64,000 nt of DNA from Candidatus Taylorbacteria bacterium RIFCSPHIGHO2_01_FULL_51_15 (GTDB lineage: Bacteria; Patescibacteriota; Minisyncoccia; Phycocordibacterales; UBA10002), in the NCBI GenBank assembly GCA_001820935.1, contig MHRI01000030.1, positions 2,734 through 66,733 of the forward strand, given 5' to 3'. The notes under the pieces are model-generated. The model was not told where the DNA came from. It worked only from the letters and a program-made list of their open reading frames with translations, and did no database searches. Shown here one piece after another: positions 3,296-60,078 of this stretch. How positions within the stretch are numbered: the first letter of the stretch is position 1; each line of letters starts with the position of its first letter. Made by a program: the position numbers and the translations under genes.

Positions 3296-3312
3296 TCGAA
3301 TTTACAAAAGAG

Positions 3313-3368
3313 AAATCCCTCCTTCGATAAGAATCGAAGTGCTCCCTTTGGGAAAGGGAGAATTAAGA
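3313..3368. repeat. Intergenic copy of the palindromic element family, placed as a bidirectional terminator between convergent genes
   Basis: 'AAATCCCTCC-CTTCGATAAGAATCGAAG-TGCTCCCTTTGGGAAAGGGAGAATTAAGA'. Nearly identical to the in-frame copy at 14468-14524. Two hairpins of 7 and 8 bp. Overlaps the stop codon of the minus-strand gene. Confidence 0.7.
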
Positions 3369-3791: not shown

Positions 3792-4301
3792 CTACAATTT
3801 CTCCAGAAGATCTGAGACTTCTTCTACGGAATCGAGAAGTATAGCCTCGAGTGAAAGCGGTGGGGTGTCTGTTGCTCCCGATTCAAGATTTTCATGTTTG
3901 CTTCCCAGGTAGAGCCTCCGTAATTTTCGGTGCGTGGCTTCAATAAGTTCCGGCTCCGATAGGTAGTACTGCTCTGGATGGAAGCGTCTTACCCATCGTG
4001 CATGCCAGACTGATGTGGGGTCAGTGTCGATTTTTACGAGCTCAATCCATTTGCATTTACATCTTGCAAACGTGAGTTTAATTGGACGTCGTATAAACCA
4101 ACGCCATTTACCCTCGGGACTTTTGTATGAGATTACCTCATCGAGTGGAAGCAATATCTTGTGGATCCGAGTAACGAACGTGCAGCCACATTCCTTTCTT
4201 CGGCAACGACGTGAAATGCGTTTTGATAGGCGGTAGGAGAACCAAAGGAGCGCAAAGAAGCAACACGCTGAAAGCGCACCGAGGAAGAAATCAGTCTTCA
4301 T
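3792..4301 (-). CDS. Hypothetical basic, Cys-rich protein with an N-terminal membrane anchor
   Basis: 169-aa ORF with an N-terminal hydrophobic segment 'FLGALSACCFFALLWF'. No recognisable domain. Confidence 0.4.
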   Translation of the reverse strand: MKTDFFLGALSACCFFALLWFSYRLSKRISRRCRRKECGCTFVTRIHKILLPLDEVISYKSPEGKWRWFIRRPIKLTFARCKCKWIELVKIDTDPTSVWHARWVRRFHPEQYYLSEPELIEATHRKLRRLYLGSKHENLESGATDTPPLSLEAILLDSVEEVSDLLEKL

Positions 4302-4388
4302 ATCTGGGCATAGTATACATAAAAAAGAACAAAATAGTTATGGTCTATTTTTTAGCATGTTTAGTGGAGCTGTACTATACTAGAGGGC

Positions 4389-9090: not shown

Positions 9091-10659
9091 GTGACATTTC
9101 GCGCTCGGACAAGTTTACCTCCACACTTTTTGTCCCAGAGTATGCCCATTAGGCGGTGCCCCCGTCTTCTCTGTTCACGTGCCAGTTTACCTGCGTGCGT
9201 TGCGCCAATCTTTAATTTTTTGTTTCTTGTCGGGATCTTACTTTCAATTCCGCATCCGACGCTACTCCGCGCTGAGGTACAGAAATTTGTTTTTGTATCG
9301 CCTCCCCAGACTGTTCCCCCCGGCGCCGTATCGGAGAAGATAACGTTGCAGTCGCAGGACGGAGCCGGAAATGAGTTCAAGGTCTCCGGCACGACGTGCG
9401 TGGCGCTCTCTTCCACGCCTTCCGGAGGAGAGTTTTCTTCGAGTGACGCCAATTGGTCTTTAGTGTCGGTGCTTACCATGGCCAAGAATTCCGCGAACCG
9501 GAATTTCCATTACAAAAATCCCGCGGCCGGTACCTACACGATCAAGGCAACTGTAGCTCTAAGGCCGGAAGGCGAAGAACGCTCTTGCCCAAGTTGGCCG
9601 CTCGCGGAATGGTCCTCCGGCTTCGAAGCGACACAGAGCATCACGATCGGCGGAACTGTAGAGAATGCGTCGAGTACTCCACCATCTGGAAATGCGGCGG
9701 AAGAGGGGGGCAGTGAAGCGGCTCCTCCTTCGCCACCGGCCACGCAAGGCAGCAACACGGTGAGTTACAAACCGCAGATCTCTGTGAGCGCTCTTGTGCC
9801 CTCTAGGGGGATCGTTGGTGCCCCCGTGCTGTTTGACGCGACCGCGATCGGGCTGAAGAAAGAACCTCTCATGAGTGCCCGCTACACATGGAGCTTTGGC
9901 GATGGCGGCTTTGGCGAGGGAAAGAAGATAGTGCACACCTATCACTATCCAGCCGTCTATGTGGTTATGGTTGATGCCTCCTCCGGAGAGTGGAGCGCGT
10001 CAGACCGAAAAGAAATTGTGATTGCACAGCCGGAACTTCGTATCTCGACCGTAAAGGAAGGAGGCGACGGATTCATCGAACTCCGGAATGGCGGCGCGGA
10101 TGAGGTTGATCTCTCGAATTGGCAACTTCGAAGCGGCACGCGCACCTTCTCTATTCCGGAAGGAACACGCATCGGAGCGCAAAAGGCCGTTCCTTTCCCA
10201 GCCCTGATTACGAACATCTCGGCCGATTCCCGAAGTACCACGCTTCTTTATCCGAACGGAGATACAGTTACAAAGTACGAAGAAAGGCCGGCGGCGCCCC
10301 CACCGGCACCTGTCAAAAAGGCGGAGGAGCAAGCGACGCAGACGGGAGCGGCAAAAAAAGAAACGTTGCGTAAAGAGACGATACCTCCTTCGCCACCGGT
10401 TCCACCCGCTGATGAAGACGCTCGTTCTCTTCCGCCCGAGCTTTCTCCTACAGCTTCGAGCACACCCCTTTCACAGGTACGTGAGCTTATCGGAGCCGCA
10501 GGAGCAAGCCAAACCGTTGGCGCAATGCCGTGGCTGCTCGCGCTAGGACTTTTCCTCGCGGTCTCGATCGGCGGGTACATCATGATGCTTCGGCCGAAGA
10601 AAGAAGAAAGCGCGGCAGAGAAACTGCAGAAAGAAGCGGCGGAATTTGAAATTGAATAG
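9091..10659 (+). CDS. Cell-surface protein with a PKD domain and lamin-tail domain (LTD), Pro/Ala-rich stalk and C-terminal TM anchor
   Basis: PKD-like 'YTWSFGDGGFGEGKKIVHTYHYPAVYVVMV'. LTD-like 'ELRISTVKEGGDGFIELRNGGADEVDLSNWQLRSG'. C-terminal 'PWLLALGLFLAVSIGGYIMML'. The true start may be ATG 9142. Confidence 0.6.
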   Translation: MTFRARTSLPPHFLSQSMPIRRCPRLLCSRASLPACVAPIFNFLFLVGILLSIPHPTLLRAEVQKFVFVSPPQTVPPGAVSEKITLQSQDGAGNEFKVSGTTCVALSSTPSGGEFSSSDANWSLVSVLTMAKNSANRNFHYKNPAAGTYTIKATVALRPEGEERSCPSWPLAEWSSGFEATQSITIGGTVENASSTPPSGNAAEEGGSEAAPPSPPATQGSNTVSYKPQISVSALVPSRGIVGAPVLFDATAIGLKKEPLMSARYTWSFGDGGFGEGKKIVHTYHYPAVYVVMVDASSGEWSASDRKEIVIAQPELRISTVKEGGDGFIELRNGGADEVDLSNWQLRSGTRTFSIPEGTRIGAQKAVPFPALITNISADSRSTTLLYPNGDTVTKYEERPAAPPPAPVKKAEEQATQTGAAKKETLRKETIPPSPPVPPADEDARSLPPELSPTASSTPLSQVRELIGAAGASQTVGAMPWLLALGLFLAVSIGGYIMMLRPKKEESAAEKLQKEAAEFEIE

Positions 10660-10755
10660 TAATTCATAGTCAGGAGTTTTTAAAACGCATCAAGCAGAGG
10701 TAAAAAAGATCCTGACTTTATAAGACCTTACGGACTTTATAGACTTTACAAACTT

Positions 10756-11979
10756 ATGAAGGTTTTAATTTTCAGCACCGCCTATCTGCCGTTTGTTGGC
10801 GGAGCGGAGCTTGCGATCAAAGAAATCACCGACCGCCTTGGTTCTCCTTTCCCCCTCTTTAGAGGGGGGATTCTGGGGGGTGCTTCCTTCGACCTCATCA
10901 CACTTAATCTTGATGGAAAACAAAAACCGGAGGAGCGAATCGGGAATGTGAACGTTATCCGCCTATCGTGCTCCAAACTCTTCTTTCCTATTCTTGCGCG
11001 CGAACGCGCCACAAAACTTCACTCCCGGAGATCATATACTCACGTCTGGTCAATCATGGCGTCCTATGGAGGTTTTGCGGGTCTCTTTTTCAAACGGCGG
11101 TTTCGGGGTGTCCCCTTTATTTTAACCCTTCAAGAAGGCGACTCTCTTTCTCATATTTACAGGCGAGCATTTCTTGCGTGGCCTCTTTTCAGACAGATCT
11201 TTACACGCGCCGATCGCATTACCGCGATTTCAAACTATTTGGCCGATTGGGCGAGAAAAATGGGAGCGAAGGGCGACATTCGTATCATATCGAATGGAGT
11301 GAATATAAAGAATTTCGAATTTCGAATTTCGAATATCGAAAAAGAAGAAATAAGAAAGAAATTAGGAATACAAAAGGAAGATAAAGTTGTGATTACGACA
11401 TCCAGACTCGTGGAGAAAAACGGAGTCGGCCACCTTATTGAATCTCTGCGGTATCTCCCGGAAAATGTGAAATTACTCATCCTCGGAACAGGCTCTCTTG
11501 AACCTGATTTAAAGCTAAAAGCTAAAAGCTATCAGCTAGAAGCTCGCGTGAAATTTGTCGGTTTCGTGCCGCACAATGAACTTCCACCCTTTCTTCATGC
11601 TGCCGATGTCTTCGTCCGACCGTCCCGTTCGGAAGGAATGGGGAGTTCATTTATAGAAGCTATGGCCGCCGGTCTTCCTGTCGTTGCGACACCGGTCGGC
11701 GGCATTCCGGACTTTCTCGCCGCGCCCCTTCCGGGCTCCGAAGAGGAAACGCATCTATTCTCTAATTCTCACGAATTAGAGAATAGATGGGGAGGGAATA
11801 TGACGGGGGTGTTTGTGAAAGTAGGGGATCCGAGAGATATCGCGGAAAAGATTAAATGCTTGTTGTCGAATGACGAACTCCGAAATAGGATCATCGCAAA
11901 CGCCTCGAAGATGGTGAAAGAAAAGTATGAGTGGGATGGGATTGTAGAGAGGATGAAAGAGGTATTTGACAAAATATAG
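10756..11979 (+). CDS. Glycosyltransferase family 4, with an in-frame palindromic insertion and a heptamer repeat
   Basis: 'MKVLIFSTAYLPFVGGAELAIKEITDRL' GT4 N-terminus. C-terminal 'RPSRSEGMGSSFIEAMAAGLPVVATPVGGIPDFL' EX7E-type motif. Confidence 0.8.
   Translation: MKVLIFSTAYLPFVGGAELAIKEITDRLGSPFPLFRGGILGGASFDLITLNLDGKQKPEERIGNVNVIRLSCSKLFFPILARERATKLHSRRSYTHVWSIMASYGGFAGLFFKRRFRGVPFILTLQEGDSLSHIYRRAFLAWPLFRQIFTRADRITAISNYLADWARKMGAKGDIRIISNGVNIKNFEFRISNIEKEEIRKKLGIQKEDKVVITTSRLVEKNGVGHLIESLRYLPENVKLLILGTGSLEPDLKLKAKSYQLEARVKFVGFVPHNELPPFLHAADVFVRPSRSEGMGSSFIEAMAAGLPVVATPVGGIPDFLAAPLPGSEEETHLFSNSHELENRWGGNMTGVFVKVGDPRDIAEKIKCLLSNDELRNRIIANASKMVKEKYEWDGIVERMKEVFDKI
10840..10885. repeat. GC-rich palindromic element inserted in frame into the GT4 gene
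   Basis: 'CCCCCTC-TTTA-GAGGGGG' hairpin (10851-10869). Encodes the extra 'GSPFPLFRGGILGGAS' between conserved GT4 N-terminal segments. Confidence 0.6.
11310..11337. repeat. Heptanucleotide tandem repeat (GAATTTC)x3 plus GAATATC inside the GT4 ORF
   Basis: Direct reading of 'gaatttcgaatttcgaatttcgaatatc'. Encodes 'NFEFRISNIE' in the inter-domain linker. Confidence 0.8.
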
Positions 11980-13171: not shown

Positions 13172-14206
13172 ATGCGGATTTTGATAGCAACAGGCATTTA
13201 TCCACCTGACATTGGTGGACCGGCGCAATACGCGCTCGGGGTGGAAGAGGTGTGGCAAAAAGCGGGTCACGAGGTGAAGGTGCTTAGCTTTAGATTCGAG
13301 AGAAGACTTCCGACCGGGATTCGACATGTGTATTATTTTCTTCGCGTCCTTTTCTCGCTTCCCGGAGTGGATTTTGTGTTTTCGCCCGACACCTTCAGCG
13401 CCGCTCTTCCGGCTCTTCTCGCGAGTACACTTTTGGGAAAGAAACTCATCATTCGTACCGGCGGAGATTTCCTGTGGGAATGGTATGTGGAGCGGACGGG
13501 AGATCTCGTTCTCCTTAGAGATTTTTATTCGACACGACTCTTGAGGTTAAATAGAAAAGAGCGAATTATTTTTTCCTTGCTCCGATTTCTGTTTCGTCAC
13601 GCCGACGCTATCATCTTCAGCACTGCTTGGCAGAGAGATATTTTCACAAAACCGTACGGTCTCAACGCGGCGCGCTGTCACATTGTTGAAAATTACTACG
13701 GCCCAGAGGAACGAAAAGTGTATTCCAATGTTCCACAACACATTGGAATACACAAAAAAATCTTTGTCGGCGGGACGCGCCCGCTGAAGTGGAAAAATAT
13801 CCCTCGTGTTGAAGAAGCATTCAAAACGCTACAAAGTAAGGGGTTACCGGTTTCCCTGGCGCTCCAGATCGGAAGTCGAGGGCAGTTTCTACTCGATATC
13901 CAGTCGAGCTATGCCGTCATCATCGCTTCACTTGGAGATATTTCTCCGAACACTATTCTTGAGGCGATTCAGTTTGGAAAGCCTTTTATCCTCACTTTAG
14001 AAACCGGACTCTACCCGAAGCTCAAAGACATCGGCGTGTGGGTTGACCCAGAAGATGTGGGTGATATAGCCGCCAAGGTTGCGTGGCTTGCGGATGATCA
14101 AAACTATGAAGCGCAATGTAAAAAAATAGCGGCGTTTGCGTTTACGCACAGCTGGGAAGATATTGCCAATGAGATCTTAACTATCCATGCGAATCTTAAA
14201 TCTTAG
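13172..14206 (+). CDS. Glycosyltransferase family 4
   Basis: 'MRILIATGIYPPDIGGPAQYA' GT4 N-terminus. 344 aa. Confidence 0.75.
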   Translation: MRILIATGIYPPDIGGPAQYALGVEEVWQKAGHEVKVLSFRFERRLPTGIRHVYYFLRVLFSLPGVDFVFSPDTFSAALPALLASTLLGKKLIIRTGGDFLWEWYVERTGDLVLLRDFYSTRLLRLNRKERIIFSLLRFLFRHADAIIFSTAWQRDIFTKPYGLNAARCHIVENYYGPEERKVYSNVPQHIGIHKKIFVGGTRPLKWKNIPRVEEAFKTLQSKGLPVSLALQIGSRGQFLLDIQSSYAVIIASLGDISPNTILEAIQFGKPFILTLETGLYPKLKDIGVWVDPEDVGDIAAKVAWLADDQNYEAQCKKIAAFAFTHSWEDIANEILTIHANLKS

Positions 14207-15362
14207 TCTGGACAGGGAAATAATTGAAAAGGGTTCCGCCGTGCGACAGCGGCTCATTTTGCTTGCGGAGAAAGTTGGGGAAATAGTGGTGTTTGTTCCG
14301 GGAGAACGAGACGAGAAAGAAGAAGTCTCGACCCATCTTACCGTGTATTCGTTTGCCGGACCGAGAGTGGCGCAACTCTGGAAGATGTGGAAGAAGGGAA
14401 AGGAGCCCCTGTCTGGAAGTTCCTCCTTTCCTAAAGGAGGCGGCGAGTTTTCGAGCCGGAGGATTTTAAATCCCTCCTCCGACTCGGAAGTCGGAGTGCT
14501 CCCTTTAGGAAAGGGAGAATTAAGAGTATTCGAATTGATCACCGTGCAAGATCCGCATTTTCTCGGACTCTTTGGCGTCCTCCTCGCAAAGAAATATCGC
14601 GTGCCGCTTGAAGTACAAGTGCATGGGTTTGAAAAGTCTTCGGGTCTTCGGAAAAGACTTGCGAGGTTTGTATTGGAAAGGGCCGATACAGTCCGCGCTG
14701 TCAGCAATCGACTGAAAGAGCATCTTCACTCCATATTCCATATTCCATATTCCATACTCTATACTTTGCCAGTGTACGCGCAAACCGCCCCTCCACAAAA
14801 AGTAATCAAACGGAAAACGGTCCCGTATCCGTTCACCTTTCTTACCGTCGGGAGACTTGTTCCCGTAAAAAATATTGACCTACAGATTCGGGCGTTCGCG
14901 CGCTTGGTAAAGGAGGTACCGCACATCCGGCTTAGGATTGTAGGAGAAGGACCTCTCGCCGACAGTCTAAAGTCCAAGGTCGAAAGTCTAACGTTGGAGA
15001 AAAGCATCATCTTTGAGGGGTATAGGCGTGATCTCCGAAGATATTATGAAGAAGCGGATGCCTTTCTTCTCACGTCCGACTGCGAAGGGTGGGGGCGGGT
15101 CGTGCTTGAAGCCGCCGCGTATCGCCTCCCCATCATTATGACCGATGTCGGACTCGCGCGGGAAGTCATCAAGAATGAAGAAAGCGGATTCATCATTCCC
15201 GTCGGCGATGAGCGAGAGCTCATGCTCGCGATGAAGGAACTTCTTGATAAGCCACAGCTTCGGGAACGGCTTGGCGAGGGAGCCTTTCGAGCGTTCAAAG
15301 CGCTCCCAAGTAGAGAAGCATATATAGAGAAACAAGTTGAGGAGTGGAGGAGTTTGATATAA
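14187..15362 (+). CDS. Glycosyltransferase family 4, with a ~39-aa in-frame palindromic insertion and a heptamer repeat
   Basis: C-terminal 'LTSDCEGWGRVVLEAAAYRLPIIMTDVGLAREVI' GT4 motif. Overlaps the upstream gene by 20 nt. Confidence 0.8.
   Translation: MRILNLSLDREIIEKGSAVRQRLILLAEKVGEIVVFVPGERDEKEEVSTHLTVYSFAGPRVAQLWKMWKKGKEPLSGSSSFPKGGGEFSSRRILNPSSDSEVGVLPLGKGELRVFELITVQDPHFLGLFGVLLAKKYRVPLEVQVHGFEKSSGLRKRLARFVLERADTVRAVSNRLKEHLHSIFHIPYSILYTLPVYAQTAPPQKVIKRKTVPYPFTFLTVGRLVPVKNIDLQIRAFARLVKEVPHIRLRIVGEGPLADSLKSKVESLTLEKSIIFEGYRRDLRRYYEEADAFLLTSDCEGWGRVVLEAAAYRLPIIMTDVGLAREVIKNEESGFIIPVGDERELMLAMKELLDKPQLRERLGEGAFRAFKALPSREAYIEKQVEEWRSLI
14420..14525. repeat. GC-rich multi-hairpin palindromic element inserted in frame into the GT4 gene
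   Basis: Hairpins at 14422-14440 (CCTCCTTT/AAAGGAGG), 14477-14496 (CTCCGAC/GTCGGAG) and 14499-14517 (CTCCCTTT/AAAGGGAG). The 3' half is near-identical to the intergenic copy at 3313-3368. Confidence 0.75.
14732..14759. repeat. Heptanucleotide tandem repeat (CATATTC)x3 plus CATACTC inside the GT4 ORF
   Basis: Direct reading of 'catattccatattccatattccatactc'. Encodes 'HSIFHIPYSILY' in the inter-domain linker. Confidence 0.8.
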
Positions 15363-23564: not shown

Positions 23565-24566
23565 ATGCATCCATACTCGAACATTCTCGTGACTGGCGGA
23601 GCCGGATTTATCGGCAGTCATTTTATAAGGTTTCTCCTTTCCACGTATCCTCACATTACGGTGGTCAATGTTGATCTGCTCACGTATTGCGGGAATCTTG
23701 AGAATGTGAAAGACGTCTCGAACGACCCTCGGTACCATTTCCGCAAAGCCGACATCGGAGATCTTGAAGCAATGGAGAAAATACTTACAGAGTTTTGTAT
23801 CGATTGCATCGTCAATTTTGCCGCGGAGTCTGATAACAATAAGGCCGTTCTCTCGCCGCTCGACTTCGTGAAGACCAACGTTCTTGGCACCGCAACCCTT
23901 CTTTCGGCGGCACGGAAGACCTCGGTAAAACGTTTTCACCACATCTCAACCTGTGAGGTGTTTGGAGAACTCCCCCTTACCAGCCCTGAACGTTTCGTCG
24001 AGGAATCTCCTTATCGGCCGCGCACTCCCTACAACGCATCGAAGGCGTCGAGCGATCTTTTCGTCAAAAGCTACTACCACACCTTTGGCTTACCCGTCAC
24101 GATAAGCTATTCGGCAAATAATTATGGAACGCACCAGTTCCCGGAAAAAGTAATACCGGTATTCACGCTTAAAGCGCTTAAGAATGAGCCGCTTCCACTC
24201 TTTGCATCAACGGGACACAAGCGAGAATGGATACACGTGCTCGACCACTCTAAGGCAATCGATCTTATCTTGCAAAAGGGCGTCATCGGAGAGAGCTACA
24301 ACATTGGTACGGGTTTTGAGAAAACGATCAGTGAAATTGCGGCAGACATCTTAGGTATATTGCATAAACCTAAAAGCATGACGACCATCGTTCCGGACCG
24401 GCTCGGGCACGACTCTCGCTATCTTCTCGATTCAAGCAAAGTTCGGGCACTTGGTTGGAAGCCGGAAATTGTCTGGGAGAAAGGTCTTGCCGAAACAGTG
24501 GAGTGGTATGCGAAGAATGCACAGTGGTGGGAGCCGCTCCTCGCGAGGTCCCACTCCTGGAAATGA
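23565..24566 (+). CDS. rfbB: dTDP-glucose 4,6-dehydratase
   Basis: 'ILVTGGAGFIGSHF'. 'YNASKASSDLFVKSYYHTFGLPV' YxxxK active site. 333 aa. Confidence 0.9.
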   Translation: MHPYSNILVTGGAGFIGSHFIRFLLSTYPHITVVNVDLLTYCGNLENVKDVSNDPRYHFRKADIGDLEAMEKILTEFCIDCIVNFAAESDNNKAVLSPLDFVKTNVLGTATLLSAARKTSVKRFHHISTCEVFGELPLTSPERFVEESPYRPRTPYNASKASSDLFVKSYYHTFGLPVTISYSANNYGTHQFPEKVIPVFTLKALKNEPLPLFASTGHKREWIHVLDHSKAIDLILQKGVIGESYNIGTGFEKTISEIAADILGILHKPKSMTTIVPDRLGHDSRYLLDSSKVRALGWKPEIVWEKGLAETVEWYAKNAQWWEPLLARSHSWK

Positions 24567-48648: not shown

Positions 48649-49386
48649 ATGAAAGAAGATGCATATATCTACGATAAAGGAGACAGGGAATACACGGTCG
48701 CAGTGACGAAACGCTACGCCGAAAAGAAATATGAGCTCGACAAAATGCTCGAGAAGCTCATCGCACCTATCATCAAAAGTAAGGAGCTTCGCATTCTCGA
48801 TGCCGGGTGCGGTATTGGTCACCTCATGGCAATTCTCAAGGAACAGAGTCCCGCATCAATGTTCACGGGGGTAGATCAAACCGCATTCATTATTAATGAA
48901 GCTAAGAAGTTGTACGGGAAGGAAACCGGTTTCCATTTTGAGCTCGGAGATATCGAAGATCTCCCCCAAAGGTATAGAGCGGCGTTTGATGTCACCATTT
49001 CACGGGCAGTCCTCTCATGGCTCCCGTATTACGAAGCACATCTCCAAGCGCTTATTGCGGTCACGAAAAAGCACCTCTTCATCGCTTCGCTGTTTTACGA
49101 TGGCGATATCGATTTCATCACACAGGTTCGTGAATTCAAATTGGAAGCAGGCAAAAAAGAGTTCAGCGCCTACCAAAATGTCTACAGTCTTCCGCGATTT
49201 ACTGACTTCCTTAAGAAAAATGGAGCAAAAAAAGTATCGGTGCATCCATTCGAAATAGGTATCGATATCCCGAGGGGGGACGAGAATCTTATGGGGACGT
49301 ATACCGAGAAGACAATTGATGGTCGCCACCTCCAGATAAGCGGCGCAATCCTTATGAGCTGGAAATGGATTCATATTGAACTCTAA
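48649..49386 (+). CDS. Class I SAM-dependent methyltransferase
   Basis: 'ILDAGCGIGHLMAIL' motif I. The ORF-track N-terminal extension (48235) is rejected because it overlaps the divergent minus-strand gene. Confidence 0.6.
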   Translation: MKEDAYIYDKGDREYTVAVTKRYAEKKYELDKMLEKLIAPIIKSKELRILDAGCGIGHLMAILKEQSPASMFTGVDQTAFIINEAKKLYGKETGFHFELGDIEDLPQRYRAAFDVTISRAVLSWLPYYEAHLQALIAVTKKHLFIASLFYDGDIDFITQVREFKLEAGKKEFSAYQNVYSLPRFTDFLKKNGAKKVSVHPFEIGIDIPRGDENLMGTYTEKTIDGRHLQISGAILMSWKWIHIEL

Positions 49387-49399
49387 ATTATTCTAATTT

Positions 49400-49424
49400 C
49401 TAATCGCCCTAATTATTCTAAGGA
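49400..49424. repeat. Partial copy (left TIR only) of the AT-rich TIR element family
   Basis: 'CTAATCGCCCTAATTATTCTAAGGA', compared with 'CTAATTGCCCTAATTATTCTAAGGA' at 50290-50314. Confidence 0.6.
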
Positions 49425-49502
49425 AGCCCAAAGACTTCAAGTTCAGCATTATTTATTGGGATTTGAGATTTTGAGTATTGTTTGGTTATTGTTTCTTGGT
49501 GA

Positions 49503-50288
49503 TTGGTTATTCATTTTATGAAGAACATCCGCATTATCCCAACCCTCCATATCAAAGGATCGAACGTGGTAAAGCCGGTACACACCGAAGCCCTTCGTGT
49601 TGTGGGCCATCCAAAGGAGCTTGCCCTCCGTTACTACCGCGAGGGAGCTGATGAACTTATCTATCTCGATATTGTCGCGAGCCTGTACCAGCGCAATTTT
49701 GATTTTGAGTTACTCAAATCCGTTTCCGAAGAAATCTTCATCCCGATTACGGTTGGAGGAGGCATCCGCTCGCTCTCCGATATCAAAAATGCTCTGCGTG
49801 TCGGAGCCGACAAAGTCGCCATCAATACGTATGCCGTGCATCACCCCGAGTTCTTGAAAGCCGCCGCAGAAGAGTTCGGCTCGCAGTGTATCGTGCTCTA
49901 CATTGAGGCCAAGGAAAAAGGGGACGGGAGGTGGGAGGTCTATACAGATGGCGGGCGGGAGAGCACCGGTGTTGATGCCGTGGAATGGGCGAAAAGGACA
50001 ATAGACCTTGGTGTAGGCGAAATCCTCCTCACTTCCATTGATCGCGATGGAACACGGAAGGGATATGACCTCGAGCTTACCTCTGCCATCGCTTCAACGT
50101 CTCCCATTCCCGTCATAGCCCATGGAGGCGCGGGGAATGCCGCTCACCTGGAAGAGATTATCAAGAAGGGAAAGGCGGACGCCGTGGGAGTGTCATCCAT
50201 TTTTCACTACGCGGAGACGGATATTGGAGCCGTGAAGAAAAATTTGAGTGGACGGGAAATCAATGTGAGAGCAAATTATTCTAATTAG
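49503..50288 (+). CDS. hisF: Imidazole-glycerol-phosphate synthase cyclase subunit HisF homolog (glycan-locus paralog, WbuZ-like)
   Basis: '[15 protein letters not shown]' and 'DELIYLDI' segments. '[10 protein letters not shown]' and '[11 protein letters not shown]' are HisF signatures. Confidence 0.8.
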
Positions 50289-50400
50289 TCTAATTGCCCT
50301 AATTATTCTAAGGAATATCAAAAAACCAATTTCCAAGTTAAACATTCGCAGTTAGGATTTCATTAGGTCAATTAGAATAATTAGGGTACTTAGGTCAATT
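50289..50400. mobile_element. MITE-like 112-bp element with terminal inverted repeats (no cargo)
   Basis: Left 'TCTAATTGCCCTAATTATTCTAAGGA'. Right 'GTCAATTAGAATAATTAGGGTAC', which is the reverse complement of CCCTAATTATTCTAATTGAC. Fills the hisF-hisH spacer. Confidence 0.6.
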
Positions 50401-50410
50401 TTTCATTCTT

Positions 50411-51058
50411 ATGAAATCTATCGTTATCATCGATTATGGAGTTGGTAACCTGCAAAGCTTGCGGAAGGCTTTCGCCCACTTCGGCGTTGAAGCGGTTGTG
50501 TCCGAAGACGCAAAGGAAATTGAGGTGGCAGATGCAGTGGTACTCCCCGGAGTGGGCTCATTCGAAGCGGGCATGCGAGGGCTGCGCCTTCGTGGACTCG
50601 TGGAGACCGTGCAGAAGCGCGCAAAAGAAAACCAACCTATGCTGGGCATCTGCCTTGGGGCACAGCTCCTGCTTTCCAAGGGTTATGAGTTCGGCGAGCA
50701 CGATGGGCTTAACATCATCCCGGGTGAAGTGGTTCGATTCGATGAGCGAGAGATGAAGGAGAAAATACCGCAGGTCGGATGGAACAGGGTGTATCCGAGC
50801 GGAGATGTTTCTTGGAAAGGAAGTATCCTCGAATCGAATGGGCCTAAGTCTGTTATGTATTTTACCCATTCATACATCTTTGCGCCGAAGCAAAAAGAGC
50901 ATATGTTTGGCGTAACTGTGTATGGCGGCAAGGAATTTTGCTCGGTCATTCGGAAAGGTAACATCTATGGCTGTCAATTCCATCCGGAAAAAAGCGGAGA
51001 AGCCGGACTTCGGCTTATCAGGAACTTCATTTCACTCGCATCAGCACCTCGTGCATAG
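50411..51058 (+). CDS. hisH: Glutamine amidotransferase subunit HisH homolog (WbuY-like)
   Basis: 'IVIIDYGVGNLQSL' and 'VVLPGVGSF' segments. 'MLGICLGAQLL' Cys nucleophile. 'GCQFHPEKS' His motif. Confidence 0.8.
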   Translation: MKSIVIIDYGVGNLQSLRKAFAHFGVEAVVSEDAKEIEVADAVVLPGVGSFEAGMRGLRLRGLVETVQKRAKENQPMLGICLGAQLLLSKGYEFGEHDGLNIIPGEVVRFDEREMKEKIPQVGWNRVYPSGDVSWKGSILESNGPKSVMYFTHSYIFAPKQKEHMFGVTVYGGKEFCSVIRKGNIYGCQFHPEKSGEAGLRLIRNFISLASAPRA

Positions 51059-51061
51059 CTT

Positions 51062-51137
51062 TTCTTTTCTACTATACTACGTAGCATAGTAGAAAAGAAA
51101 AACCCGCTTCGATCCGCGTGAGCGAATCGAAGCGGGT
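51062..51137. terminator. Twin-hairpin bidirectional terminator region between the convergent hisH and transporter genes
   Basis: Hairpin 1: 14-bp AT-rich stem 'TTCTTTTCTACTAT/ATAGTAGAAAAGAA'. Hairpin 2: 12-bp stem 'ACCCGCTTCGAT/ATCGAAGCGGGT', with a T-run on the minus strand. Confidence 0.55.
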
Positions 51138-51144
51138 AGAGATC

Positions 51145-52113
51145 CTACTCCTGGCTGAAATTCAGGGCGATAAGCAAACTGCCCGTAAGTGCAGCGGCGA
51201 ACAGTATCCATTCTGTTGTGTCATAGTGCTTATTCTCCTTGAAGATGAACAGCCCCATAACGATAGGGCAGATGACCGATGCCACAAGTATTATCGGAGA
51301 CATGACAGCAAGCGGTGCAAGATGCAGGGTCCAAAAGGTGACAAGTACGCTCAAGATGGTCGTGATCGCAAGCAAGGCAACGAACACCGTATTCATGCTT
51401 AACGTCTTCTCCGCCGTTCCGTCCTCTCTTGTTCTCATTCGTAAGACAAGCGTTATGAGGAGTGAGGAGAAGAATGTTCCTGCATACCATGCGCCGATAA
51501 AGACCTCTGTCGGAAGACTTCGGAGCGCAAAGACCCGAACCAGAAAGTTGCTGATACCGAAGCAGACGGCAAAAGTCCCTGCGTATAGAAAAAAAGAAGG
51601 GGGAAGTCTTTCCTTCGGTTCTCCTTTCCGCTTTTTCTTTCCATACCGCTGATACAGTGCGAAGACTCCGATAGCTCCGACTGAAAGCAGTATTCCCGAA
51701 AGCATCAATCCGGAAAGCCGAGCGTGTTCGCGAAGCCATATCTGTTCGAAGATGAGCGGAAGAATGGAGTTGATGATAAGAAAAAGGCTCGTGGCACTCA
51801 AATTCATTCGTGTCGCTTGCCAGAATGCATAGTTGCCCAAGGCGACGATTGTCCCTATCAGGAAGGGTGCGACGAGGGCGGAGGATATCGGCATTTTTCC
51901 AAGAGCGAAGAGCGGCAGTGTGGTCAGTCCAAAGCAAACGACGTAGAAGAGCATGAACCGCTGTTTGGTGTTTCGGGTAGCCACTTTTCCTTTAAGAAGG
52001 AGTGGCACCGCAATGTTTGAGAGGGCTATCTGTAAGATAAGAGGAAGGTACCATTTCATATCATTTGGTGTAACACCTATCATTTCATCCTGTGCCAGCC
52101 TATCCTTTTCCAA
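51145..52113 (-). CDS. DMT/EamA-like polytopic membrane transporter
   Basis: About 10 TM helices in two similar halves. No soluble domain. Confidence 0.45.
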   Translation of the reverse strand: MEKDRLAQDEMIGVTPNDMKWYLPLILQIALSNIAVPLLLKGKVATRNTKQRFMLFYVVCFGLTTLPLFALGKMPISSALVAPFLIGTIVALGNYAFWQATRMNLSATSLFLIINSILPLIFEQIWLREHARLSGLMLSGILLSVGAIGVFALYQRYGKKKRKGEPKERLPPSFFLYAGTFAVCFGISNFLVRVFALRSLPTEVFIGAWYAGTFFSSLLITLVLRMRTREDGTAEKTLSMNTVFVALLAITTILSVLVTFWTLHLAPLAVMSPIILVASVICPIVMGLFIFKENKHYDTTEWILFAAALTGSLLIALNFSQE

Positions 52114-52240
52114 GACTTTTTCAAGTGCCCTATAGTTGTATATACTGTAGCCAAATCTTTTAATGTATAGACATTCTTTTGGATTTTTAGAAGTTAGGTA
52201 AATTCGAAATTAGAAATTCAATTTTGTCTTCAAAATTTTT

Positions 52241-53473
52241 ATGCCTCCCTACGGACTTCCCGAAAAAATAAGGTTCTGCGAACGCTGTCTTGCTTCGAAC
52301 GCACAGCCGATTTCGTGCAACGAGTACAAGCATACGCCAGAGATGAAGCACGAGTACATCAAGTTTGACGACGAGGGTATTTGCGCCGCGTGCCGTTTTT
52401 TCGAAGCTCGCAAGAACGGGGTTATTGATTGGGAAGCTCGCGAGAAAGAACTCCTCGCACTTCTCGACCAGTATCGTTCAAGTGATGGATCCTACGACTG
52501 CCTCGTGCCGGGAAGCGGCGGTAAGGATAGTGCATACGCGTCTCACGTCTTGAAATACAAATACCGTATGCACCCTCTTACCGTTACATGGACGCCGCAC
52601 CTCTACACCGACATCGGTCGGAAGAATTTTGATAATTGGATTAACATGGGGGGATTCGATAATTACCTGTTCTCTCCCAACGGCAAAGTACATCGACTGC
52701 TCACACGAAATGCTTTCCTCAATCTCCTCCATCCATTTCAACCGTTCATTCTCGGACAAAAAACCTTTGCCCCAAAAATGGCCGCGCGGTTTGGTATCAA
52801 ACTTATTTTCTACGGAGAGAATCAGGGGGAGTATGGCGACAAAACTTCCGTAAATCAGAGAAAGTTTATTATGGGGGGTTCGAAGGACGAGAAAGATAAA
52901 GGATTCCGGCTCGACTACGCGAAGCCGAGCGATCCACCCGAAGAGGTATTTTTGGGAGGAAAGTCGCTTGCGGAGTATTTCAAAGAGGGACTTTCCTACG
53001 CCGACCTCGCTCCGTTCCTGCCCGCAGACCCTGCCATCATCGCAAAGAACGAGATAGAGTTCCACTACCTTGGCTACTACCTGAAGTGGGTGCCGCAAGA
53101 CTGCTACTATTACGCGGTCAAATATACCGGCTTTGAAGCGAATCCGGTGCGCACTGAAGGGACCTACTCGAAGTACAACTCTATCGACGACAAGACAGAC
53201 GGCTTCTTCTACTACACCACCTTCATCAAGTTTGGGTTCGGACGCGCTCGCTACGATGCTTCACAGGAGATTCGGAACGGACATATCACCAAAGAAGAAG
53301 GTGCCGCGCTCATCAAACGATTCGACGGCGAATTCCCCAAACGCTATTTCCCCGAGTTCCTCGACTACATCGGTCTTACCGAAAAAGAATTCGAGGGTAC
53401 CATCGATTCTTTCCGTACCCCGCATTTGTGGAAGAAGGAGGGCGGAGAGTGGAAACTGAAGCAGAGAGAATAA
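52241..53473 (+). CDS. N-acetyl-sugar amidotransferase (PP-loop ATPase; WbuX/LfnA/PtmG-type)
   Basis: 'CERCLASNAQPIS' and 'CAACRFFE' zinc ribbon. 'CLVPGSGGKDSAYASHV' PP-loop (SGGKDS). Confidence 0.8.
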   Translation: MPPYGLPEKIRFCERCLASNAQPISCNEYKHTPEMKHEYIKFDDEGICAACRFFEARKNGVIDWEAREKELLALLDQYRSSDGSYDCLVPGSGGKDSAYASHVLKYKYRMHPLTVTWTPHLYTDIGRKNFDNWINMGGFDNYLFSPNGKVHRLLTRNAFLNLLHPFQPFILGQKTFAPKMAARFGIKLIFYGENQGEYGDKTSVNQRKFIMGGSKDEKDKGFRLDYAKPSDPPEEVFLGGKSLAEYFKEGLSYADLAPFLPADPAIIAKNEIEFHYLGYYLKWVPQDCYYYAVKYTGFEANPVRTEGTYSKYNSIDDKTDGFFYYTTFIKFGFGRARYDASQEIRNGHITKEEGAALIKRFDGEFPKRYFPEFLDYIGLTEKEFEGTIDSFRTPHLWKKEGGEWKLKQRE

Positions 53474-53957
53474 ATTAGTCTAATTAACCTAATTATTCTA
53501 ATTGACCTAAGGAAATCGCAATGACAGAGAAAAACCCAAAATATGATCTGGAAGAGCGTACTGCAAAATTCGGGGAAGCAGTCGTGTTGTTTGCGAAGAA
53601 AATACCCGTCACGCCGGTAACTCAACGTATCATTCCGCAATTGGTCGCTTCCGGTACTTCGATCGGCAGTAATTATTGTGAGGCTGATGACGCCGAATCC
53701 GGAAGAGATTTTGTCCATAAACTCGGCATCTGTAAAAAGGAAGCGCGGGAAACCAAACACTGGCTTCGAATAATATCTGTCGCTGTTCCGGAGTTACGGG
53801 ATGATGCACGAGTCTTATGGAAAGAAGCAAATGAGCTCAACCTGATTTTCAATGCTATCGTAAGGAAGGTTCGAAATAAGGGGAAAGTTGTTGTGGACAT
53901 TGGTATTTAGGATTTCTTTAGAATAATTAGGTTAATTAGAGCAATTAGAATAATTCC
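53474..53957. mobile_element. IVS-like insertion element: perfect 22-bp terminal inverted repeats flanking a four-helix-bundle protein gene
   Basis: Left TIR 'CTAATTAACCTAATTATTCTAA' (53479-53500). Right TIR is the exact reverse complement (53918-53939). Same TIR family as the elements at 49400, 50289 and 55263. Confidence 0.65.
53521..53910 (+). CDS. Four-helix-bundle protein (TIGR02436 / 23S rRNA intervening-sequence protein family)
   Basis: 129 aa. 'ERTAKFGEAVVLFAKKIPVTP...QLVASGTSIGSNYCEA...ETKHWL' is a typical signature. Confidence 0.75.
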   Translation: MTEKNPKYDLEERTAKFGEAVVLFAKKIPVTPVTQRIIPQLVASGTSIGSNYCEADDAESGRDFVHKLGICKKEARETKHWLRIISVAVPELRDDARVLWKEANELNLIFNAIVRKVRNKGKVVVDIGI

Positions 53958-53960
53958 CCC

Positions 53961-55262
53961 ATGCTAAAAACAGGAAGCAAAAAGTACAGAAAGTCCTTAG
54001 CGCACTACGAAGTTGCAAAGCAGCTTCTTCCCAATCAGACCCAGACCTTGAGTAAAGGGCCGGGGCAGTTCGTCCCGGGAGAGATGCCGCTTTTCAACAA
54101 ACGAGCAAAAGGCTGCTACGTATGGGACGTCGACGGCAACAAGTATCTTGATTTTATCGGGGCGCGTTGGCCCATTATCCTCGGGTACGCCTATCCGTCC
54201 GTGGATAGAGCGATCAAGCGCCAACTGAAGGACGGCATCACCTTTCCACAGCCCCATCCCCTCGAGGTGGAGGTGGCGGAACTACTTACCGAAGTCATTC
54301 CTTCCGCCGAGATGGTGCGATTTGCCAAAAACGGTTCGGATGCGACGAGCGGTGCCGTCCGTATCGCGAGGGCCTTTACAGGACGTGAGATCATACTCCA
54401 ATGCGGCTATCATGGCGCGCAAGATTGGTTCCTTATTACCACAGCGCGAAATGCCGGTGTACCGAGGTGTCTAAAAGAAATCATACACTCATTCAATTAC
54501 AACGACCTTCCCTCGCTTGAAGCGCTTTTTAAGCGCTTCAAGGGCAAGGTCGCGGCGGTCATTATGGAGCCAATGTACGCGAAGGAGCCGAAGGACAATT
54601 TTCTTCAAAAAGCAAAAGATCTCGCGCATAAAGAAGGGGCGCTCCTTATCTTCGATGAGATCATTACCGGATTTCGATGGAGTATCGGCGGCGCGCAGAA
54701 ATATTTTGGCGTAACTCCCGACCTGTCTTGTTTTGGCAAGGCGATGTCGAATGGTATGCCGCTTTCGGCTATTGTGGGACGAAGGGATGTTATGCAAGGC
54801 ACCGAACATATTTTCCTTTCTATGACCTATGGTGGCGAGTGTCTCTCGCTTGCGGCGGCGAAAGCAACCATTACAGAGCTTAGGAAACCCGCAGTGCTCG
54901 CCCATATCTGGAAGATGGGTGGACTGGTTAAAAAGGGAGTGCAAGCCCTCATCAACAAACACGGTCTTATCGATGTTGTCGAATGTATCGGTGTGCCCCC
55001 GACTCCGGTCATGACATTTAAAAACGCGCGGGGGGAAAGTGAAAGCGCGCTCAAAACTCTGTTCCAGAAGTATCTCTTTGACCAGCACATTATGTACGCG
55101 GGCTATTTCAACATGACTTACAGTCATACACGGAAGGACGTAGAAACCGCGCTTACGGCAGTTGACCGCGCATTCGGCTCCCTGTCAAAAGACCTCGAAG
55201 CGAAGTCGGTGGGGAAGAAAATGTCGCACCCCCCCGAACCGGTTTTTAAGCATGCAAACTAG
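53961..55262 (+). CDS. Class III PLP-dependent aminotransferase (glutamate-1-semialdehyde aminomutase-like)
   Basis: 'YVWDVDGNKYLDFIGARWPIILGYAYP' and 'LIFDEIITGFR' segments. 'FGKAMSNGMP' carries the PLP-lysine. Confidence 0.8.
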   Translation: MLKTGSKKYRKSLAHYEVAKQLLPNQTQTLSKGPGQFVPGEMPLFNKRAKGCYVWDVDGNKYLDFIGARWPIILGYAYPSVDRAIKRQLKDGITFPQPHPLEVEVAELLTEVIPSAEMVRFAKNGSDATSGAVRIARAFTGREIILQCGYHGAQDWFLITTARNAGVPRCLKEIIHSFNYNDLPSLEALFKRFKGKVAAVIMEPMYAKEPKDNFLQKAKDLAHKEGALLIFDEIITGFRWSIGGAQKYFGVTPDLSCFGKAMSNGMPLSAIVGRRDVMQGTEHIFLSMTYGGECLSLAAAKATITELRKPAVLAHIWKMGGLVKKGVQALINKHGLIDVVECIGVPPTPVMTFKNARGESESALKTLFQKYLFDQHIMYAGYFNMTYSHTRKDVETALTAVDRAFGSLSKDLEAKSVGKKMSHPPEPVFKHAN

Positions 55263-55391
55263 AAAATTATCCTAATTGACTTAATTGCTCTAATTATTCT
55301 AAATAAATCTCAATGTCTAATTCTCAACGAAGATTTTGATATTTCAGGCTTTCCTCAGGTCAATTAGAATACTTAGGTGAATTAGAAATTC
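55263..55391. repeat. Degenerate copy of the AT-rich TIR element (129 bp). Its right end supplies the RBS for neuA.
   Basis: Left 'CTAATTGCTCTAATTATTCTAA'. Right 'CAATTAGAATACTTAGG', which is the reverse complement of CCTAAGTATTCTAATTG (2 mismatches). Confidence 0.5.
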
Positions 55392-56117
55392 ATGTCTCTC
55401 ACATTTCTCGGTATCATTCCCGCCCGCGGGGGAAGCAAAGGCATCCGGAACAAAAATATCCGCGCCTTTGCCGGCAAGCCGCTTATCGCATACGCCATAG
55501 ACGCGGCAAAAAAATCACGATATCTTTCGCGAACCGTCGTCTCGACAGAGTCGGAAGAGATAGCGCGCGTGGCGAAGGAGTATGGCGCGGAGGTCCCGTT
55601 TCTTCGCCCAAAAGAACTTGCCGAGGATACAAGCAAAGTGTTTGACGCGATAGCCCATCTACTCGAGAAATTGAAGACGGACGAAGGATATGCACCCGAT
55701 TATATCGTGCTCCTTCAGCCAACCTCTCCGCTCCGAACGGCAAAGGACATTGATGCGACCATAGCTCTGCTTTTGAAGCACAGCGCCGATTCGGCCATCA
55801 CCGTTTCGGTGGTAGAGCCACGAGTCTTTGTCAAGGCCGCGGACGGTGTACTCACGCTCGCGAGCGATGAGAAATTCCTGCGCTCGACCAACCGACAGGC
55901 GCTCGAGCATACCGTGAGCGAGAACGGCTCAATGGTCTACGTAAACCGCGTCAGCACGCTACTTTCCACGGGAAACTTTTTGGGCGGCAAACTGGTTGGA
56001 ATAGAGACTCCGAAATGGCGCTCGATTGACCTAGATTCTCCTGAGGATTTCGTACTCGGGGAACTTATCGCCAAGCATCGGGCGGAGATGGAAGAGAGCA
56101 TCACCAATTTTAAATAA
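55392..56117 (+). CDS. neuA: Acylneuraminate (nonulosonic acid) cytidylyltransferase
   Basis: 'IIPARGGSKGIRNKNIRAFAGKPLIAYAI' and 'LQPTSPLR' are CMP-NeuAc synthetase family signatures. Confidence 0.8.
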   Translation: MSLTFLGIIPARGGSKGIRNKNIRAFAGKPLIAYAIDAAKKSRYLSRTVVSTESEEIARVAKEYGAEVPFLRPKELAEDTSKVFDAIAHLLEKLKTDEGYAPDYIVLLQPTSPLRTAKDIDATIALLLKHSADSAITVSVVEPRVFVKAADGVLTLASDEKFLRSTNRQALEHTVSENGSMVYVNRVSTLLSTGNFLGGKLVGIETPKWRSIDLDSPEDFVLGELIAKHRAEMEESITNFK

Positions 56118-56952: not shown

Positions 56953-56975
56953 GCGGAATGACACATAACTGAAGA

Positions 56976-57000
56976 CCGGAGCGCTCCGGATTTTTTAGGT
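56976..57000 (+). terminator. Weak rho-independent terminator candidate
   Basis: Palindrome 'CCGGAGCGCTCCGG' followed by 'ATTTTTT'. Confidence 0.45.
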
Positions 57001-57050
57001 TATTCAGTCATTCAGTTATACGTTATCAGTTATTCAGTGACATTGAGCAA

Positions 57051-59904: not shown

Positions 59905-59930
59905 CGGTTCACCGCATTTAAGAAAGAGCC

Positions 59931-60044
59931 CAAAACACAGTGACCAAAAATTCAGACAAAACACAGTGTGCCAAACTGCCAAACGAGTCGGTTTGTGTTC
60001 TGGAGATTTGTGCAGTTTGTTTGGACTTTGTGTACTGTGTTTTG
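59931..60044. repeat. Intergenic direct plus inverted repeat cluster (CAAAACACAGTG x2 direct; inverted copy TACTGTGTTTTG)
   Basis: Read directly at 59931-59942, 59957-59968 and 60033-60044. A degenerate TIR-family fragment 'TTAGAATATATTTAGG' lies at 60049-60064. Confidence 0.5.
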
Positions 60045-60078
60045 TAAGGTTTAGAATATATTTAGGTAATTCATTTTT

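Follow-up and report, generated by a model that had tools for sequence, protein, structure and literature searches.

Palindromic elements in a nonulosonic-acid locus

The window analysed here is a stretch of 64,000 nucleotides from Candidatus Taylorbacteria bacterium RIFCSPHIGHO2_01_FULL_51_15, a Patescibacteria metagenome-assembled genome (MAG) from the Rifle aquifer; coverage of this genome amounts to only about 100 kb. Its portion between 48.2 and 58.1 kb is, by Pfam and NCBIfam, a nonulosonic-acid/acetamidino sugar locus, and several spacers of this locus are occupied by copies of a palindromic element, one of which encloses a gene for a four-helix-bundle (4HB) protein of 129 amino acids (aa). 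The genes follow one another in the order S-adenosylmethionine (SAM) methyltransferase, HisF/WbuZ-like, HisH-like, an unassigned membrane-like gene on the minus strand, WbuX amidotransferase, 4HB gene, class III aminotransferase, PseF/NeuA-like cytidylyltransferase, short-chain dehydrogenase/reductase (SDR) and NeuB. A preliminary description, made by reading the sequence, had already named the flanking genes, and these identities hold in both databases. Element arms were located, and paired into elements, with a profile built from 24 arms, from which the bit scores below are taken. The features relevant here, including elements with and without an open reading frame (ORF), are as follows.

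49384-49386: TAA stop of the SAM methyltransferase gene, at the start of el1
49385-49432, plus strand: el1, half element, left arm only (29 bits), beginning at the methyltransferase TAA
49518-50288, plus strand: HisF/WbuZ-like gene (Pfam and NCBIfam), upstream flank of el2
50272-50401, no strand given: el2, complete ORF-less element; arms 50272-50319 and 50352-50401 (41 bits each), loop of about 32 nt
50411-51058, plus strand: HisH-like gene (Pfam and NCBIfam), downstream flank of el2
52241-53473, plus strand: WbuX N-acetyl sugar amidotransferase (TIGR03573, E 1.6e-100), stop at 53471-53473, upstream of el3
53472-53957, plus strand: el3, full-length element of 486 nt; arms 53472-53521 and 53907-53957 (43 bits each)
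53521-53910, plus strand: 4HB gene, 129 aa, 23S_rRNA_IVP / Avd family (PF05635, TIGR02436)
53961-55262, plus strand: class III aminotransferase (Pfam and NCBIfam), stop at 55260-55262, between el3 and el4
55263-55388, no strand given: el4, complete, degenerate, ORF-less element; arms 55263-55313 (36 bits) and 55346-55388 (21 bits)
55392-56117, plus strand: PseF/NeuA-like cytidylyltransferase (Pfam and NCBIfam), downstream of el4
60047-60070, no strand given: possible right-arm remnant, TTTAGAATATATTTAGGTAATTC, like the right-arm consensus by eye and below the profile threshold

The repeat motif on which the preliminary description had built is real. Allowing up to two mismatches, CCTAATTATTCTAA occurs ten times in the window, always within 49383-55377, compared to 0.33 ± 0.59 matches expected from shuffling; none of 100 shuffles reached ten. 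Likewise, CTAATTN3CTAATT was found 31 times (5.0 expected), with 29 matches in the four spacers between 49384 and 55385 and the others at 52192 and 61026. Tandem Repeats Finder reported period-9 arrays at 49386-49421, 50274-50311, 53480-53510, 53918-53955 and 55272-55302. The idea of a single repeat core stands as far as a shared family is concerned, but the arm is not one 22-mer; it is made of four to five phased 9-nt units plus an inner palindrome. An outer AAAATTATT is followed by three to four units (CTAATT and an R-N-Y spacer) and then by the conserved inner palindrome CTAAAYAAATCCCAATG, the consensus of the profile being AAAATTATT-(CTAATT-RNY)3-4-CTAAAYAAATCCCAAT. The CTAATT hexamers are near-invariant, the spacer triplets come from a small R-N-Y set (ATT, AAC, GAC, GTT, GCT, ATA), and the distance from unit to unit is exactly 9 nt in 154 of 191 cases (45 elements). 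The full-length form of about 486 nt consists of arms around one 4HB gene with the start codon inside the stem, and short forms, of 90-260 nt, keep both arms and the inner palindrome and have lost the ORF.

The window contains three complete elements (el2, el3 and el4), one half element (el1) and one fragment near 60047, and the proposal of one element family with inverted ends is supported. The arms of the copies in this genome are 62-83% alike. Full-length el3 reaches from the WbuX stop almost to the aminotransferase ATG at 53961. The perfect 22-bp terminal inverted repeats described for it (as a copy at 53474-53957) are exact, 53480-53501 (CTAATTAACCTAATTATTCTAA) being the reverse complement of 53918-53939, and the extended arms 53473-53501 and 53918-53946 are 93% complementary over 29 nt. 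The stem closes the whole ORF in minimum free energy (MFE) and centroid folds alike, and the 4HB gene is indeed its only cargo.

Among the ORF-less copies, el2 is complete with inverted ends, as had been described, but longer than the 112 bp assigned to it (50289-50400). Its RNA fold is far better than that of shuffles (-31.9 kcal/mol, z -5.05). The hisF ORF runs five codons into its left arm, ends there at TAG 50286-50288 and has lost its own stop. Directly behind the aminotransferase stop and in front of the cytidylyltransferase ATG (55392) lies el4, which folds weakly (-22.5 kcal/mol, z -1.5); the copy described as partial or degenerate at 55263-55391 is degenerate but nevertheless a complete element, while the one at 49400-49424, el1, does have a left arm only. 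The remainder of the el1 spacer, up to the hisF-like ATG at 49518, consists of GT-rich short repeats. A G:U-paired right arm was considered for el1 and rejected, as the spacer 49380-49505 folds like shuffles (z 0.06); in a relative discussed below (L339) the orthologous spacer holds a different GC-rich hairpin. The fragment reported at 60049-60064, just upstream of a methyltransferase ATG at 60079, keeps its likeness to a right arm by eye, but not by profile score.

The motif is not a general promoter or operator, being confined to four to five spacers of the 64-kb window, all in or beside the 6-kb region. The suggestion that the elements donate ribosome-binding sites was not borne out: a Shine-Dalgarno-like motif precedes only 11 of 55 window genes, and the family as a whole does not conserve the strings TAAGGA/AGGTGA. 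A role of the arms as suppliers of stop codons in three frames was also rejected (11 of 45 left arms, compared to 28% of random sequence).

Elements inserted at operon junctions

Comparison with three related loci demonstrates precise insertion of elements where the stop of one operon gene meets the start of the next; in a close relative the same junctions are empty. The junctions between hisF and hisH, after WbuX, and between the aminotransferase and the cytidylyltransferase compare as follows.

Window (HisF 100%): hisF-hisH 122 nt (el2); after WbuX 487 nt (el3 with 4HB gene); aminotransferase-cytidylyltransferase 129 nt (el4)
L339 (HisF 84%): hisF-hisH ATGA overlap; after WbuX 1 nt (GAATAA-T-ATG); aminotransferase-cytidylyltransferase 4 nt
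L340 (HisF 82%): hisF-hisH 31 nt with a single AATTAG remnant; after WbuX 13 nt; no aminotransferase here
L341 (HisF 75%): hisF-hisH 120 nt, element of the same family with a different GC-rich loop; after WbuX a CTAATT-armed 4HB element; no aminotransferase here

The gene order of L339 (HisF-HisH-WbuX-aminotransferase-cytidylyltransferase-SDR-NeuB-epimerase) is that of the window without the element spacers. Presence/absence polymorphism is therefore evident, with L339 empty, L340 carrying a remnant, and L341 and the window occupied. A PrgI-TraC-VirB4 operon, resembling a type IV secretion system (T4SS), varies likewise among three other genomes: each junction may measure just 1 nt or may hold a 4HB element or one without ORF, and the TraC-VirB4 junction carries an ORF-less element in one genome and 4HB elements in the two others.

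Terminal inverted repeats, small size and presence/absence polymorphism at orthologous sites are features of MITEs (miniature inverted-repeat transposable elements), as which the copies had been described. In the strict sense this term does not apply: neither a target-site duplication nor a relative that bears a transposase was found, and the copies of the genome are only 62-83% alike. The clean junctions of el3, el4 and the L341 element (TAG/AATTATTC...GAATAATT/TATG, slashes marking the element ends) show no direct repeat, although a 2-nt TA duplication could hide at some AT-rich ends.

Copies also exist outside the 6-kb region. The same Taylorbacteria contig carries, about 30 kb downstream, one more short element together with a second CTAATT-armed 4HB gene, and a scan for three phased hexamers, using one genome per species, yielded more than 120 loci, mostly in Patescibacteria of many phyla (Yanofsky-, Roizman-, Shapiro-, Doudna-, Staskawicz-, Levyi-, Uhr-, Magasanik-, Sungii- and Saccharibacteria). 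In a sample made up of the window, pattern-selected genome loci and 4HB loci, the arm profile paired 45 elements of 91-488 nt from at least ten named lineages of the candidate phyla radiation (CPR) and one WOR-3 MAG. For the 39 elements with loops below 300 nt, lengths range from 91 to 299 nt around a median of 137 nt. On gene maps that for foreign loci are longest-ORF approximations, about 32 of 41 elements start no more than 20 nt from a neighbouring ORF end, about 28 have the next ORF within 20 nt of their own end, and roughly 33 of the 41 placed elements lie between co-directional genes. The only type of ORF found inside arms is the 4HB gene (4 of 45 paired elements in the arm scan, 11 of 11 close 4HB loci), and ORF-less copies outnumber those that bear it.

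The elements are not specific to the glycan locus. Elsewhere the neighbours are unrelated genes (besides glycan synthesis, mreB/mreC, rplO/secY, T4SS-like and ParA-like genes), and the arm profile, applied to 735 kb of control sequence in which aminotransferase homologues of other organisms lie, had no match; the best metagenome relative of the aminotransferase in this control set shares 62% identity with it, and arms are absent from all these relatives. In 1.04 Mb of viral contigs that had been chosen by the hexamer pattern, the arm profile gave no inverted pairs. No ribosomal RNA (rRNA) was found near elements in 18 loci, no rRNA motif in any locus examined and no Rfam match in the window. 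The full-length form shares its architecture with a 23S rRNA intervening sequence (IVS), but lies between protein-coding genes.

In short elements both arms run on past the hexamers into CTAAAYAAATCCCAATGTC. In the full form the left CTAAAYAAATCCCAATGTC is the ribosome-start region (…CAATG…) and the right one, read as the complement GACATTGG, is the end of the ORF. Because the short copies retain these start-codon and ORF-end segments (CCCAATGTC... and ...GACATTGG), they look like internally deleted full-length elements.

Covariation of spacer triplets between the arms was rejected, complementarity not exceeding chance in either register. In the same register it was 0.285 versus 0.42 for shuffled partners and thus below chance, largely because the innermost spacers tend to differ between arms (GAC in one, ATT in the other); shifted by one unit, it was 0.54 versus 0.52, which is not significant. 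Strand-specific selection on RNA was rejected as well, the comparison of sense and antisense MFE in 27 short elements between co-directional genes giving 14 versus 12 (Wilcoxon p 0.45). Short copies are present in both orientations, and their loops are not conserved. Since the hexamers are conserved, and spacer pairing and strand bias are absent, selection acts on a phased sequence motif and not on Watson-Crick pairing. Such a motif points to a sequence-specific reader, for which the 4HB protein is the only candidate encoded by the element.

The four-helix-bundle protein and its arms

The 4HB protein of the window matches PF05635 (E 3.5e-11, 43.7 bits, cut-off 33.8) and TIGR02436 (E 6.8e-19, 68.1 bits, cut-off 24). 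Its AlphaFold2 model (pLDDT 90.7) has helices at residues 10-25, 32-56, 61-88 and 90-127. Structural neighbours identified with Foldseek are 2rld (BT_0352; E 4e-5, TM 0.72-0.85), 2gsc (Xcc0516) and the Avd proteins of diversity-generating retroelements (DGRs; 4dwl/8ub8); phmmer also matched the protein to 2rld (E 1.9e-12). The nearest solved structures, crystallised or imaged, have five chains per entry and are pentamers, and by analogy the window protein is probably pentameric too. Avd itself forms a basic barrel of five subunits, to which a structured RNA element binds (bioRxiv 10.1101/2023.10.23.563531). In PADLOC and PHROGs the window protein had no match, and a classical-type paralogue gave a weak match to Avd (E 0.0011).

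About 8000 homologues were found, the best 120 of which are 69-87% identical and spread across CPR phyla and one WOR-3 MAG. An alignment of 35 proteins has 36 invariant columns. In pairwise comparisons the proportion of synonymous differences (pS) is 0.58-0.96, with synonymous sites saturated in nearly all pairs, and that of nonsynonymous differences (pN) 0.07-0.29; for the two copies of this genome pS is 0.66, pN 0.07 and dN/dS 0.04. Judged by these substitution patterns, the protein is old and strongly constrained. Because synonymous sites are saturated, its similarity across phyla does not stem from recent transfer.

Eleven close 4HB genes, defined by at least 70% identity, were inspected for their surroundings; eight of them were measured at 70-87%, and three were matched only to the subfamily (E ≤ 1e-66). 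All 11 are bracketed by CTAATT arms on both sides and all are co-oriented with at least one neighbour, nine with both. Among the called genes within 3-10 kb of the eight close loci that have gene tables (L019, L029 and L043, lacking such tables, were left out), there is no reverse transcriptase or transposase. More distant 4HB genes, in CPR bacteria, Bacteroidota and cyanobacteria, carry repeat arms of other types, of 7-9 nt; arm types are listed here with the identity to the window protein.

CTAATT arms (9-nt units): the 11 close homologues, 70-87% (eight measured)
TCAAT / ATTGA arms: L344a, 53%
ATTTGAA / TTCAAAT arms: L343c, 44%
AAAGTCCAT arms: L211b, 32%, classical IVP type
A5TATA5 arms: L343b, 27%
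ACCCTA arms: L216a, 26%, classical IVP type
ATGGAATA arms: L031, Bacteroidota, 25%, classical IVP type

Plasmids of cultured organisms (L345-L350: Anabaena, Dolichospermum, Nostoc, Bernardetia, Chlorohelix, Planktothrix) have 4HB genes as well. The proteins are 36-41% identical, the genes lie between co-oriented genes, often defence genes, and they are flanked by tandem arrays of heptamers, mostly inverted. The following units were found there.

Nostoc: (CAATTCG)4…(GCGAATT)3
Dolichospermum: (AATTCGT)3…(ACGAATT)4, the protein being a close homologue of the Nostoc one
Chlorohelix: GATGAAG-type units
Planktothrix: CCCCAAT and CGTAAAT units
Anabaena: GTAAAAA units

Neighbours of the plasmid genes include cas1/cas2, DISARM drmD/pglX, a helicase/methylase and a split cytosine methyltransferase. 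Heptamer arrays of a similar kind have long been known in these phyla. In the window, four 9-nt units GACTTTATA at 10714-10755 directly precede a family 4 glycosyltransferase (GT4) gene at 10756. Read as reverse complement, they match the AAAGTCCAT-type arm at L211 8575-8600, beside a classical IVP-type 4HB gene some 30 kb downstream on the same contig, and they probably represent an arm, without ORF, of a second element family.

Interpretation and relation to known systems

With moderate confidence we take the family to be an IVS-like, REPIN-like palindromic insertion element, common in Patescibacteria, whose 4HB protein probably recognises its own arms. Co-transcription of the element with its host operon is suggested because just one promoter-like site, upstream of WbuX, is conserved in relatives and because scans for promoters and terminators gave no excess over shuffles. 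This site (TTTTTCAAGTG...GTTGTATATACTGTAG, 52107-52146; conserved in L339, L340 and L341) is probably a real promoter, that of the WbuX-to-NeuB operon. The element transcript would then fold into a long hairpin, which may be tolerated or may be cut by RNase III as in rRNA IVSs, with flanking genes staying expressed; the Coxiella IVS has a 28-bp stem and an S23p ORF and is excised by RNase III (PMC4990558). Going by the conservation of the hexamers, the 4HB protein, probably as a pentamer, would recognise the phased hexamers of its own arms, and this recognition could secure maintenance or spread of the element, by analogy with RAYT and REPINs.

Several observations weigh against this proposal. 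The copies of the genome are old, given the divergence of their arms and a pS of 0.66 between the 4HB genes, and show no sign of recent activity; neither a target-site duplication nor a recognisable transposase or recombinase was found for the elements. Folding without a sense/antisense bias and the occurrence in both orientations give no sign of selection on transcript structure. Arms and gene are inherited as a unit, so that linkage alone predicts a correspondence of protein and arm type, which is no proof of binding. Moreover, loci were retrieved via arm pattern or protein, and frequencies are biased accordingly.

The hairpins might instead be host regulatory modules (intercistronic processing, stability, translation control), kept for their benefit to the cell, with the 4HB protein as a trans-acting RNA-binding regulator that has a regulon of binding sites. 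This we consider unlikely, even though strong purifying selection on the protein and the great age of the copies are in its favour, as are the position of elements inside operons at stop and start codons, the burial of the 4HB start codon in the stem, binding of structured RNA by Avd-family proteins (bioRxiv 10.1101/2023.10.23.563531) and a comparable proposal (PMC4679880) for heptamer repeats, TAACTGA, that stand upstream of start codons. A host function is hard to reconcile with the closest relative, which lacks elements at the same junctions, with the unrelated nature of the adjacent host genes, and with short copies that lie in either orientation, without strand bias in folding or conserved loops. 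Less probable still are ordinary MITEs moved in trans by a transposase encoded elsewhere (e.g. IS630/Tc1-like or IS200/IS605-like), the 4HB gene being a captured passenger. Capture at random predicts neither that all 11 close 4HB genes share one arm type nor that other subfamilies have arms of their own, and it does not fit the strong constraint on the protein. In about 0.9 Mb of arm-containing loci no arm pair surrounds a transposase and no arm pairs lie 0.9-6 kb apart, and clean junctions such as those of L341 have no target-site duplication. Nevertheless, inverted ends with repeated subterminal motifs are reminiscent of multi-site transposon ends, insertion polymorphism exists, ORF-less copies are the more numerous ones, and AT-rich ends would mask a TA duplication. 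Finally, it is scarcely credible that there is no element at all and that the spacers contain low-complexity, AT-rich slippage products or a shared promoter/operator motif. Short tandem repeats are present in several other window spacers and 9-nt units could grow by slippage, but the same 50-nt arm consensus, with its non-repetitive inner palindrome, recurs in inverted pairs across phyla. The arm profile, the lack of any match in the 735 kb of control sequence and the empty junctions already contradict such an origin; promoter-like sites remain at shuffle level, and the motif is missing from the other window spacers apart from the weak right-arm-like fragment near 60047.

Among known systems, rRNA IVSs with an S23p/IVP ORF (Leptospira, Coxiella; PMC4990558) are alike in length (about 430-490 nt), in a closing stem of 22-29 bp, in a single PF05635-family ORF, in the existence of ORF-less versions and in their sporadic distribution. 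They reside in helix 25 or 45 of 23S rRNA, whereas the window element lies between protein genes of an operon, has arms of phased tandem 9-nt repeats and carries an intact, strongly constrained ORF, in contrast to the decaying one of Coxiella. IVP ORFs are already known from rRNA insertions of CPR bacteria (18 in 16S, 4 in 23S; PMC11270868). The REPIN-RAYT system (PMC3116915; bioRxiv 10.1101/2021.07.10.451892) similarly combines many short intergenic hairpin doublets with few protein genes flanked by the same repeats, is old and seemingly long-lived in its lineages, and varies its repeat type with the protein type. However, the protein of the present family is a PF05635 four-helix bundle without HUH/Y1 nuclease motifs and not a RAYT, its arms are tandem arrays as opposed to the single 20-40-nt palindromes with GTAG/CGTC tags of REPINs, and it spans many phyla. 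Correia/NEMIS, ERIC and RUP-type MITEs are also palindromes of 100-150 nt between genes, co-transcribed with their neighbours, and Correia elements are cut by RNase III in mRNA. Unlike the present family, they have TA or other target duplications and ends derived from insertion sequences, are near-identical within a genome and lack a four-helix-bundle master copy.

DGR Avd (4dwl, 8ub8) belongs to the same fold family, and the structured RNA bound by its pentameric basic barrel is encoded beside its own gene; the window protein shares only about 17% sequence identity with it, and no reverse transcriptase (eight loci checked) or template/variable repeat pair was seen at 4HB loci. Heptamer tandem repeats of cyanobacteria, Bacteroidetes, Beggiatoaceae and Xanthomonas (PMC4679880, PMC4692102) form 7-nt arrays in spacers near start codons and have a patchy spread across phyla, and the cyanobacterial 4HB genes inspected are bracketed by such arrays. 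They were described as direct arrays without an associated protein, in contrast to 9-nt units in inverted pairs. TIGR-Tas arrays, with 36-nt units and a Tas protein, are unrelated. In the literature we found no paper on the operon-junction elements, their tandem-repeat arms or ORF-less derivatives, and none that ties PF05635/IVP proteins to short tandem repeats or to intergenic palindromes of CPR bacteria.

The IVS ORF and thousands of genes annotated as 'four helix bundle protein' have been without an assigned function since the early 1990s. Finding the same cassette of long stem and 4HB ORF outside rRNA hints at what the IVS-protein family acts on. With empty sites for comparison, ORF-less derivatives, strong purifying selection and an arm motif whose sequence is conserved but whose pairing is not, this becomes a testable question, namely whether the pentamer binds the phased (CTAATTNNN)n of its own arms, as DNA or RNA. 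The elements also account for spacers of 100-500 nt in the otherwise tightly packed operons of Patescibacteria, and in annotation their hairpins and small ORFs split operons, lengthen the C-termini of host proteins and can pass for regulatory RNAs. If the association with heptamers in cultured cyanobacteria and Bacteroidota holds, genetics would become possible in tractable organisms. A wider proposition, which is conceivable yet rather doubtful to us, is that PF05635 proteins in general partner short phased tandem repeats in a sequence-specific manner, the cassettes of each subfamily having inverted arms made of its own 7-9-nt unit. If so, ORF-less arrays in spacers would be footprints or satellites of 4HB cassettes; the CTAATT hairpins of Patescibacteria would be among them and so, possibly, would the STRR-type heptamers found in cyanobacteria, Bacteroidota and Xanthomonas. 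It would amount to a new selfish or symbiotic module of protein plus repeat, and the rRNA IVS ORF would gain a function after 30 years.

Further features were observed in the loci analysed. A group I intron (RF00028, 61.6 bits) lies at 3305-3505 of the Saccharibacteria locus L018, about 2.3 kb from a CTAATT element and without a match to an rRNA model. On the Taylorbacteria contig, L211 contains two small genes of the DUF559/MTES_1575 type (very-short-patch-repair-like endonuclease fold) at 378-647 and 10236-10517, one within about 3.6 kb of the ORF-less element 4241-4364 and the other about 1.3 kb downstream of the 4HB gene 8621-8968, which has AAAGTCCAT arms.

In the window, the minus-strand gene between hisH and WbuX (51145-52113, 322 aa) has no Pfam or NCBIfam match; two strong hairpins, one at 51059-51102 and one at 51102-51137, precede it. 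The gene is missing from L339, L340 and L341, where the hisH-WbuX spacer measures 58-110 nt, and looks like a separate insertion into the locus. The SDR-NeuB spacer (56953-57050) has a terminator-like hairpin at 56976-56989 with a T run and, beyond that, five 8-nt units GTTATTCA (56999-57038); the two genes overlap in L339. The spacer before the methyltransferase gene at 60079 holds a different long hairpin (59926-60045), after which the CTAATT-like fragment comes. Its left arm is CA-rich (CAAAACACAGTG...), its right arm GT-rich, and it folds at -43.9 kcal/mol (z -3.9), the plus strand being 8 kcal/mol better than the minus strand. A 512-nt intergenic stretch without a long ORF (23943-24454) has coding-like sequence and may be a frameshifted or pseudogenised gene for a sugar-nucleotide enzyme. 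In two GT4 genes, heptanucleotide tandem repeats (GAATTTC x4.4, AAAGCTA x4.9 and TCCATAT x5.4) occur in frame at 11310-11340 and 11511-11544 (ORF 10756-11979) and at 14728-14765 (ORF 14187-15362). They sit in the linker joining the two glycosyltransferase domains. Since one unit more or less would cause a frameshift, they could be phase-variation switches for surface glycans.

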